Program-made: the position numbers and the translations under genes
NCBI RefSeq assembly: GCF_963921235.1
Contig: NC_086097.1
Span: 67,520,001 to 67,580,000, forward strand
DNA: 60,000 nucleotides
From: Mobula hypostoma
Lineage: Eukaryota
Direction of reading: 5' to 3'
The notes under the pieces: model-generated
Told to the model about the DNA's origin: nothing
The model's database searches: none
The model's input: only the letters and a program-made list of their open reading frames with translations
Shown here: in pieces, positions 18,874-35,029 of the stretch
Layout: each line of letters starts with the position of its first letter
Numbering within the stretch: position 1 is the first letter of the stretch

Positions 18874-19131
<258 letters not shown>

Positions 19132-19533: not shown

Positions 19534-19753
19534 GAAGAAGAAGAAGAAAGCCCTTAACTCCAAGTGGAGTAATCAGGATGCCGTCATGACGGCTTTTTTT
19601 TTTAGCAGGCTTTCTTATTTTTACGAGGCCGAGTTGCTAGCTCAACGCTCAACCCAGCACGGGTGGAAAGTGTGCAAGGGAGCCAGCTGGATTCGAACTC
19701 GGGAGCCTTCGCTCCGAAGTCTGGCGCTGATGCCGCTACGGCACCAGCCAACT
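19534..19753 (-). mobile_element. tRNA-derived SINE with (CTT)n tail
   Basis: B box GAGTTCGAATCC; TSD AAGTC(A/G)TATAT (19523-33 and 19754-64); same head as 1971-2158. Confidence 0.85.
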
Positions 19754-32492: not shown

Positions 32493-33449
32493 CAGTAACC
32501 ATGTTGAAACTTGACCAGTGATCCAAGTATCTGAATGTTGTTAATGCACATGGTGTTTTCAGCAACTCCAAAGACACTTCATTTCACAATAATACCATTT
32601 GATGCTTTGCTTTTGTATGATCTTTTGTCAACTTTCACATGTTAGAGATGGTACAGGCTGCTGTTTAGCCTCCTTTTCAGCAAAAATGTTTTAGCAGAAT
32701 TAATCTGCAAACCAGAATTGCACAGAATAGAATTCTATATCAGCTTTCTTAAACTTGTAAGATCTGTTCCAATGTTTCTTGCAAGAATGACATAATGTGC
32801 TTAAATATTCTCATCATTAGGTCCCAGCGGTGCACCTTATCCAAGATTGAAATGGTATTGACTAATCCATTAAAATGTTTTGCTCCCCTCTATTTAAAAG
32901 CAGTTGAATTATTATTTATGGCATTTTTTCTGTTTGACCATTTGAAGATTTGACCATTATCTACTGATTTGTTCCACATTCTCCACTATGTAAGTTAAAC
33001 TTTTACCTTCAGAATTGTTTGAATTTTCTCTATTTATATGGAAGCTGAATATCACTAAATTTCTAAAGTTACAAAAAAATAACCTTCATTGCACTTCATT
33101 GTGATTAATGCTAGTAAATCTTATTCTTTATATGCTTAAATCATAAAGAATTTATTTGCTGAGAAACATTGTAGTTAAGTAAATTGATCTTATAATTTTG
33201 TCTGAAGATGACTACAATATGATGTGAATTTTTTTTTGCTGCTGCCTTCAATAGTGAATCATGGTTCCATGGGAATTTCTGAAGTACATTGAATATAAGC
33301 TTCAAAATTATTGAGTTATCGCTGGATGCTACCTTGTTTGCTGGTCAACAATTTGGCAATCTAGCAGAGGCAGTAAACAAGTTGTATTGGAAGTTAAATT
33401 TGAGAAAATTGTAGGAGTTTTATCTCCACTCTGTTTGTTGTCTTCAGAT

Positions 33450-33455
33450 AATAAA
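33450..33455 (+). terminator. Candidate EGLN3 polyadenylation signal
   Basis: AATAAA ~960 nt after the stop in repeat-free AT-rich sequence, followed by a GT/T-rich tract at 33501-33520. Confidence 0.5.
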
Positions 33456-34019
33456 GTGGTCCCTGCAGTCAAGACAAAGATATATTTTACACAAATATGG
33501 CTGTGTGTATTTTGTTTGTCTCACTCCATCTTCTGCCCTCATTGCATTATTATCATTAAATGATTCAGTCATTAACCTTTATGTAATTCCAAATTTACTG
33601 TAAATATTTATTGCTTTCTCAGGTTGTCAATCAGCATCCTGGGGAAGAAAGTCTTATTTCTGTTGTTCTATATTTTTAGCATTCTTAGCCAACTGAGATA
33701 TTGTGTAAGTAGGATTAAAGTTATACATTTAAGATTGTTTTTACGTCATTTCCAGTACACAGCTAAAGGAGAACAAAATAATTGTTACTCCAGATCCAAT
33801 GCAGCATAAAAAAAAACACAATAAGATAAAGAACCCAATAACAAAAGTATTAAATATAAATACATTGATTTAAAAAAAAATTAAAATTTATTCATTTATG
33901 GGATGTGGATATCGCCAAGCTAAGCCAGCATTTATTGCCCATTCTTAGTTGCCTTTGAGAAGGTGGTGATGAACTGGCTTCTTGAACCGCTGCAGTCCCT
34001 GAGGTGTAGGTATACCCAT

Positions 34020-34572
34020 CTTGTTCGTCCATCGTCGACGTCGATGAAGACCTCGACACCAATATTGATGGTGTCGAGACTAGCGCGTGACTTGGATTTA
34101 AGTGAGGGAGAGTTGCGCAGCGTCAGCCTCACTCTCTCTTCCCAATTCCCATCTGGATTCATTGGCAAGACAGAGTCGAGATGGGACTAGGTGCAGTGGA
34201 TGACCAGGACGTCTTCTGTGTCTTGTCCTGCTCTACACATTCCACGATGCTTGCAGAGACCGCCTTCTTGACCGTTGGACCTTCCATTGGTCTCGTCCGC
34301 TCAATCCGCCGGAGTCTGTCTTCACATGCTGGGATAGACAACTCCCTATCTCACCGAGGGTTTGAGACCCGTCGGCTATCCTCACCTGGTTTAGCCGGCT
34401 TGTTGAAGCCGTTGCCCGGGGTGTGGCCGCTGTCGCATGCAAACAGCTACGGGGAGCCACAGGTGAGAGCTGAGTGCCAGGTGGGGACCAAAGGTGAACT
34501 AACCACCTTGAAAAGGACGCGACATGTTACTCCACCAGAGGTGCTACCCCTCCCTGACACCCCATACACCCC
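34020..34572 (-). mobile_element. SINE-like retroelement (family B, probably RTE-mobilised), full length, inserted in an older LINE fragment (~33880-35020)
   Basis: 12-bp TSD AGGTATACCCAT (34008-19 and 34573-84); CpG-rich and therefore young; no Pol III boxes seen. Confidence 0.85.
34381..34572 (-). ncRNA. HDV-like self-cleaving ribozyme forming the 5' end of SINE family B
   Basis: P1 GGGGTGT/ACACCCC, P2 CTCACCTG/CAGGTGAG, P3 GGC/GCC, L3 TCCCCGT, P1.1 CC/GG, P4 CGGCTT/AAGCCG, J4/2 GCTAA with the catalytic C at 34394. G1 is the first base after the TSD. Confidence 0.8.
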
Positions 34573-35029
34573 AGGTATACCCATAATGCTGTTAGGGAGG
34601 GAATTCCATGATTTTGACCCAGTGACAATGAAGGAACGGCAATTATGTTTTCAAGTTAGGATGGTGAGTGACTTGGGGGATTTCTAAGTGTTCCCAGCTA
34701 TCTGCTGTCCTCATCCTTCAAGATGGCAGCAGTCATGGGTCTGGAAGGTGCTGCCTTAGGAACTTAGGTGTGTTGTTGCAGTGCAACTGTTCGTTGATAG
34801 TGGAGGAATTGCATGCTTGTAGAAGGGGTACCAATCAAGTGGGCTGCCTGTACTGAATGGTATCAAGCTTCGTAAGTGTTGATGGAGCTGCACTCATCCA
34901 GGCTAGTGGCGAGTATTCCGTTACTCTCCTGACCTGAGCCTTGTAGATGGTGGATAGGCTTTGGGGAGTCAGGAGGTGAGTTACATGTCGCAGGATTCCT
35001 AGCCTTTGACCTGCTCTATAAAGTGTGTG

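Follow-up and report, generated by a model that had tools for sequence, protein, structure and literature searches.

What gives a short, dispersed element its exact 5′ end, and could a self-cleaving RNA do so if it carries a helix inside L3? The question arises from the window (the whole 60-kb stretch of DNA analysed here), in which an earlier note, made from the letters alone, described on the minus strand a self-excising element headed by an HDV-like ribozyme. Table 1 collects the features; element nucleotides (nt) are counted from G1, its first base.

Table 1. Features of the element and of its predicted RNA, with a related composite family
Feature	Position	Strand	Remarks
Bipartite non-autonomous RTE element (SIDE)	34020..34572	minus	553 bases; one copy of a high-copy family
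Upstream TSD copy, 12 bp	34573..34584	minus	Perfect repeat; empty-site joints in contigs from other organisms
Downstream TSD copy, 12 bp	34008..34019	minus	Perfect repeat
P1 5′ strand, 7 bp	34566..34572	minus	G1 = G34572; cleavage predicted 5′ of this base
P1 pairing	34572-34566 with 34424-34418	minus	
Second P1-compatible strand	34557..34563	minus	Element nt 10-16; overlaps P1.2
J1/2 peripheral domain	34474..34560	minus	Closed by helix P1.2
P1.2	34560-34553/34481-34474	minus	
P2 5′ strand	34460..34467	minus	P2 is 34467-34460/34388-34381
P3 5′ strand with the canonical L3 core of 7 nt	34449..34458	minus	U20, C21, C22 and G25 equivalents
P3 pairing	34458-34456/34427-34425	minus	
L3 core	34455-34449	minus	
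Hairpin H1 inserted in L3	34429..34447	minus	Loop contains a palindromic hexamer
P3 3′ strand, P1 3′ strand, GG of P1.1	34416..34427	minus	P1.1 GG is 34417-34416
P4 hairpin	34396..34411	minus	
J4/2, then P2 3′ strand	34381..34395	minus	Predicted catalytic C34394
Hairpin H2, candidate kissing partner of H1	34311..34345	minus	Loop ~34329-34321, complementary to H1 loop
Remaining RTE 5′ UTR	34066..34310	minus	Common to parent LINE
11-bp hairpin	34078-34052	minus	Deletion junction in loop
RTE 3′ end (~42 nt) and short repeat tail	34020..34065	minus	
Second composite family	L061, ~1000-1700; L076, 1409-2110; further G000 matches	minus (L061)	

An internally deleted RTE LINE

The element is nested in an older repeat and lies antisense to an EGLN-type gene, exons of which are visible on the plus strand of the window, upstream of the element, near 18940, 30590 and 32310. 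The earlier note placed it antisense past the EGLN3 poly(A) signal; the orientation stands and an AATAAA is present at 33450, but the identity of this signal is doubtful, as it directly follows a candidate splice acceptor. A pyrimidine tract and CAG precede the AATAAA (33446-33456), which may instead open a further exon. The location is incidental, and we rejected a functional link with the EGLN-type gene because the element is on the wrong strand and is only one of more than 1000 insertions.

A search of the same genome returned 3,950 candidates, and the 40 that were scored comprise the query and 39 copies at 94-95% identity. An exact pattern for the sequence on both sides of the L3 insert occurs at 1,298 places and its reversed control at none, so that the family has at least 1,298 copies. 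The family is young, with a mean divergence from the majority sequence of 2.7% in 80 distinct copies, 55 of which have a TSD score of at least 7. Its tails are short AAC, AC or AAG repeats and, together with the TSDs and the 5′ truncation of some copies, provide the marks of target-primed reverse transcription. Parts of the element are also present in contigs from four sequencing runs of other organisms, and in three the empty site is seen, with the host repeat continuous across it; a local search among the collected loci found no empty site. In one copy (L074) the 5′ segment at nt 3-43 is inverted, a typical trace of twin priming, and at G000:C9 (~202.31-202.35 Mb) a single insertion and its flanks have been multiplied four times in a tandem array (L004, L010, L021 and L022). 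To judge by the character of the repeats that flank the element, the host is probably a cartilaginous fish.

The short element corresponds to ~517 nt of the 5′ UTR of an RTE LINE followed by its last ~42 nt. At the parent LINE locus (L067/L091), the same head precedes a broken coding region with endonuclease (APE) and reverse transcriptase (RT); the ends of L091 match element nt 1-517 (92%) and 519-558 (82%), with APE and RT in between, and this LINE has its own TSD. Among the best 40 matches to the first 915 nt of the LINE, in a ranking that favours full length, 28 begin at nt 1-7. Its Pfam domains are RVT_1 and, slightly below the cut-off and on a 64-aa piece, Exo_endo_phos; a turtle protein is 82% and a ray protein 80% identical to the RT piece, and relatives of full length have ~1,060 aa. 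The single APE and RT coding region is of the RTE type, and we take the clade to be RTE on motifs plus architecture rather than on a tree of named references.

Only the two LINE ends are kept in the short element, whose longest sense ORF has 47 codons. A pol III head was also sought within it, and the lack of any tRNA, A/B box or Rfam match led us to reject a canonical SINE (pol III, with a tRNA, 7SL or 5S head). Given that the element matches the two ends of the LINE and has neither a tRNA head nor a B box, it is a bipartite non-autonomous RTE element, that is, an internally deleted LINE or SIDE. Thus, of the promoter-less SINE of ~550 bp first proposed, the absence of A and B boxes holds, but the class changes from a SINE with its own head to a SIDE derived from an RTE LINE. 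From the comparison of the two sequences, the predicted ribozyme and its L3 hairpin are inherited from the autonomous LINE.

The arms of the 11-bp hairpin at the deletion junction derive from the LINE 5′ UTR and 3′ end; the deletion may have been guided by pairing between the two ends of the LINE RNA; alternatively, the hairpin may be a later product. There is also a second composite family, in which the same ribozyme head and 5′ UTR are combined with a tRNA-like SINE head of ~130 nt (with A and B boxes) and an RTE tail. As 39 of its 40 scored matches cover nearly the entire junction query, this family has been amplified as a unit. The tRNA-like head alone, with another 3′ continuation, is found on the minus strand of the window (19618-19748, 2035-2158 and 2653-2760).

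The HDV-like fold and the hairpin in L3

In this copy, P1, P1.1, P2, P3 and P4 are nested in the right order of a double pseudoknot, and G1, the U20/G25 equivalents and a C in J4/2 are all present. The initial description of the fold withstood re-examination: G34572 directly adjoins the 12-bp TSD as G1 of a 7-bp P1, all helices lie where they had been placed, with C34394 in J4/2, and L3 carries an extra stem-loop of ~19 nt (34447-34429) within an insert of 21 nt. A second P1-compatible strand, 9 nt inside the element, had been overlooked and was revealed by our HDV descriptor. L3 is 28 nt long, outside the 7-8 nt expected of HDV ribozymes, and we take this as a variant feature.

The custom descriptor (a 7-bp P1 starting with G, P2, P3, P1.1, J4/2 and an L3 of 7-70 nt) matched only this element on both strands of the whole window; with 2000 dinucleotide shuffles of the element, it gave five matches anywhere and none at the element start. 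An Rfam search gave no match at the locus, nor in any of 15 relatives, those with a canonical L3 included. Nested MFE folding, a method blind to pseudoknots, found a stability no better than that of shuffles (z -0.72). Misfolds in which the P3 strand pairs with the P1 3′ strand or with P4 are predicted, and these count against the ribozyme reading.

To place the fold among its relatives, we assembled 88 related RTE loci from metagenome and genome collections and scanned 85 upstream of the ORF, many of which appear to be without the element's 5′ end. Ten convincing HDV folds were obtained; four further descriptor matches (L107, L129, L165 and L185) were judged to be chance and set aside, and three decayed or cut-off loci (L160, L117 and L119) were added by eye. 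The resulting covariation table holds ten hand-aligned sequences from different RTE families, with near-duplicates removed, and is read as plain counts with no phylogeny-aware statistic. Pairing is present in 62 of 63 cells of P1, where six of seven positions show double changes; in 27 of 30 of P3, where two of three do; and in 61 of 70 of P2, where all seven do, seven of the nine P2 misses being due to a single row aligned one base off. The covariation in relatives that the earlier note put forward as a check is thus present for P1, P2 and P3 in this hand-set table.

L3 has 7 nt in seven of the ten sequences; the relatives with this length are L111, L117, L143, L157, L167 and L170, among others. 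Because L111 and L117 share the J4/2 layout of the element and have a 7-nt L3 with no hairpin, the L3 hairpin is an insertion after the seventh L3 base. It recurs in L120, whose fold is intact apart from it and shows compensatory changes in P1 and P2, and in L160, where the fold is decayed and the catalytic C replaced. In L110 (~240-545), which has a homologous 5′ UTR, P3, L3 and P1 form one long hairpin; the H1 loop and H2 are kept and the HDV pseudoknot is lost. Given these losses in L160 and L110, the hairpin form is intact in only two lineages, that of this genome and L120. An APE tree unites L120, L160, L117 and L129 in one clade (99%) with differing 5′ UTRs, a pattern suggestive of an exchange of UTRs or of recurrent gain and loss; its backbone is weak, and we claim no order of gain and loss.

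Several observations from the same searches may be recorded here. In the RTE relatives L127 (~245-400), L161 and L164, the 5′ end opens with a different conserved pseudoknot-like structure that has no fit to the HDV descriptor and no Rfam match. Related families in other organisms have the same P2/P3 with different L3 inserts, according to a low-agreement consensus (loose ends at 34453, other letters at 34451-34452). RTE LINE sequences in bacterial MAG records (L187-L194) are most likely animal host contamination. In viral contigs, a 16-nt UTR motif gave 15 matches without further similarity, and an RTE protein search gave none.

The hairpin itself, H1, has a 5-bp stem and a 9-nt loop. Among the 100 matches listed, the L3 insert is complete in 99 and has a 7-nt deletion in one, and none is without it. 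Bases 26-27 of HDV are exposed and dispensable, and an insertion after the G25/U26 equivalents is therefore plausible; H1 would be a tolerated 21-nt insertion that leaves the catalytic residues intact. Nine positions of the H1 loop are complementary to that of H2, which lies 111 nt downstream. Both hairpins are also found in L120, L160, L110, L148, L116 and L129, giving seven distinct sequences; in L148, L116 and L129 the distance between H1 and H2 is 43-45 nt, and there H1 is not part of a ribozyme. Ranked against 600-775 local windows, H2 comes first as a partner in four of the seven.

One may ask whether H1 is simply a neutral passenger insertion and its complementarity to H2 the by-product of a repeated palindromic word, which would be compatible with an active ribozyme. 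We consider this rather unlikely. Close relatives do differ as a passenger might, L117 having no hairpin in a clade with L120, L160 and L129, and a permutation test for cognate H1-H2 pairing was not significant (the sum was reached by 524 of 5040). However, the H1 stem varies around a conserved loop wherever the two hairpins occur together, including the three sequences outside any ribozyme, and the stem is kept in 74 of 75 genomic copies. On balance, the chances that the H1 loop pairs with H2 to make an extra tertiary contact seem about even to us, and any role for such a contact is conjecture. We also put forward, tentatively and as a possibility only, that H1 and H2, through pairing of their loops, form a conserved module of RTE 5′ UTRs and that, in some lineages, H1 has come to lie in the catalytic L3 of a working HDV-like ribozyme, where a third pseudoknot would couple cleavage either to the synthesis of RNA ~60 nt beyond the ribozyme or to RTE protein loading. 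If so, H1 in L3 would represent a peripheral domain at a site new to the HDV fold, and descriptors with L3 fixed at 7-8 nt would not see it.

Copy ends and the origin of the 5′ terminus

The position of the 5′ end can be judged from 30 loci picked by their last 121 bases alone, a set unbiased for 5′ ends. Twelve of them, the query copy included, start at nt 1, and 20 start at nt 1-4; the ten truncated copies start at nt 18-438. The pile-up at G1 anticipated by the earlier note is thus seen, and full-length copies do not extend upstream of G1 as a family, since nothing is shared between copies in the upstream 60 bases. Among the 80 distinct copies, which come from three sets, two of them biased to complete 5′ ends, 40 start at nt 1. 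Since 5′ ends do not accumulate at nt 10, we rejected the alternative P1 strand there as the main cut site.

A T occupies position -1 in 29 of the 40 copies that start at G1, compared with 13 of 40 with other starts (p 0.0007). The R2 reverse transcriptase adds an A on run-off from an RNA end, and the T fits such run-off at a true RNA end with an added A. A transcript starting one nt earlier, with a templated T, would explain it equally. The best leader base for HDV is U at -1 (PMC1874588).

The earlier start would be expected if an internal promoter, initiating at G1 or one base before it, set the 5′ end and the HDV fold were inherited but slow or dead, possibly because the L3 insert blocks P1.1. 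Such an arrangement has a precedent in L1Tc, whose first 77 nt hold both promoter and ribozyme (PMC3383444), and it would accommodate the frequent T at -1, the retention in L110 of both hairpins and not of the pseudoknot, and a subfamily of nine copies that has been amplified with an A-C mismatch at P1 position 6, most of its starts still lying at G1 or close by. Nevertheless, we judge it improbable, as the 5′ end coincides with G1 of a 7-bp P1, P1 and P2 show compensatory changes between the element family and L120, both of which bear the hairpin, and the core is more conserved than the body. In 51 copies not selected on the core, non-CpG change amounts to 0.68% in the core and 1.25% in the body (p 0.007); with the tail-selected loci only, the difference falls short of significance (p 0.13). 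All core pairs are kept in just 25 of the 40 copies that start at G1.

We therefore favour, and regard as likely when taken together, read-through transcription, self-cleavage at G1 and mobilisation in trans via the tail. An RTE-clade LINE would have lost its whole ORF and retained its 5′ UTR and 3′ tail, and the copies would be transcribed by read-through from host promoters. The HDV-like double pseudoknot (nt 1-192) would then cut the RNA 5′ of G1, as the fold, the covariation and the end mapping suggest, with a possible additional contact between H1 and H2 ~110 nt downstream. Finally, the tail would recruit the APE/RT protein of the parent LINE for target-primed reverse transcription into new sites.

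The loop core of H1 is usually palindromic, and self-pairing and pairing with H2 are hard to tell apart. That a working ribozyme uses this loop to dimerise two RNAs instead of pairing with H2 is nonetheless very improbable: the self-duplex energy is as good as that of H1-H2 in six of the seven distinct sequences, and L3-mediated CPEB3 dimers are reported in crystals (10.1101/2022.09.22.508989), but in L129 the palindrome is destroyed by a double change from G-C to A-U (self -4.1 kcal/mol) that preserves pairing with its own H2 (-11.9 kcal/mol; in a second comparison, -10.9 with its own H2 and -3.2 to -6.1 with the other six), and in L160 the H1-H2 pairing is lengthened to 10 perfect pairs.

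RTE UTRs are in use as gene-writing templates (PMC13708176), and a defined 5′ structure with a candidate long-range pairing would thus offer practical leads. If the ribozyme is active, a helix is tolerated by the HDV fold within the loop from which its active site is built, and searches with a fixed L3 undercount such ribozymes in animal genomes. The natural pair of a 7-nt and a 28-nt L3 in related RTEs is suited to direct comparison.

Comparison with known systems

Ribozyme-headed deleted LINEs and RTE ribozymes are an already published strategy, and Ruminski 2011 reportedly deals with HDV-like ribozymes in non-LTR elements, RTE among them. The comparisons below refer to passages of the cited papers. 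Within the literature covered in this way, we found no description of an L3 insertion or hairpin or of a kissing loop, nor of this family in sharks; an L3 insertion may be shown in the figures or supplement of Ruminski 2011.

The closest parallels in architecture are other deleted LINEs. Drosophila R2 SIDEs, as well as R2/R1 hybrid SIDEs, are ribozyme-processed deleted LINEs, for which Eickbush and Eickbush (2012, PMC3414825) use the term SIDE and not SINE. Like the present element, R2 SIDEs are non-autonomous, with a 5′ HDV-like ribozyme, a LINE 3′ end and no pol III transcription; in contrast, they are rDNA-specific and of low copy number, whereas the element belongs to the RTE clade, is dispersed in more than 1000 copies in a 3.5-Gb animal genome and carries the L3 insertion. 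The bipartite RTEs RTESINE1/2, WALLSI3 and MAR4_MD, which usually retain the LINE 5′ end and have been linked to ribozymes (Kojima 2018, PMC5786205), likewise join an RTE LINE 5′ UTR to ~40 nt of the 3′ end, a likeness in described architecture, and no ribozyme structure is given for them in the portion of that paper considered here.

Other systems share single aspects. The trypanosomatid NARTc, RIME and SIDER are also short non-autonomous elements with HDV-like 5′ ribozymes, theirs being active in vitro, but they belong to the Ingi clade and have a compact 77-nt ribozyme that doubles as a promoter (PMC4035085). The twister T-variants of Perere-3 are likewise of the RTE clade, with a TSD that adjoins the ribozyme cut site, although they represent another ribozyme class (PMC8501958).

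As for the fold, RTEs and some SINEs are known to use HDV-like ribozymes (reviewed in PMC6765202). The ribozymes of RTE and other non-LTR elements (PMC6765202, PMC5786205) and drz-Agam-2-1 (PMC4908430) resemble that of the element in their 5′ double pseudoknot, structured J1/2 and long P2. Peripheral domains have been described in J1/2 (PMC4908430) and in J1/2 and L4 (PMC3774820). Thus, whereas these known ribozymes have their inserts in J1/2 or L4/P4 and an L3 of 7-8 nt, the element has its insert in L3, and this hairpin is probably a new structural variant of the HDV-like ribozyme.
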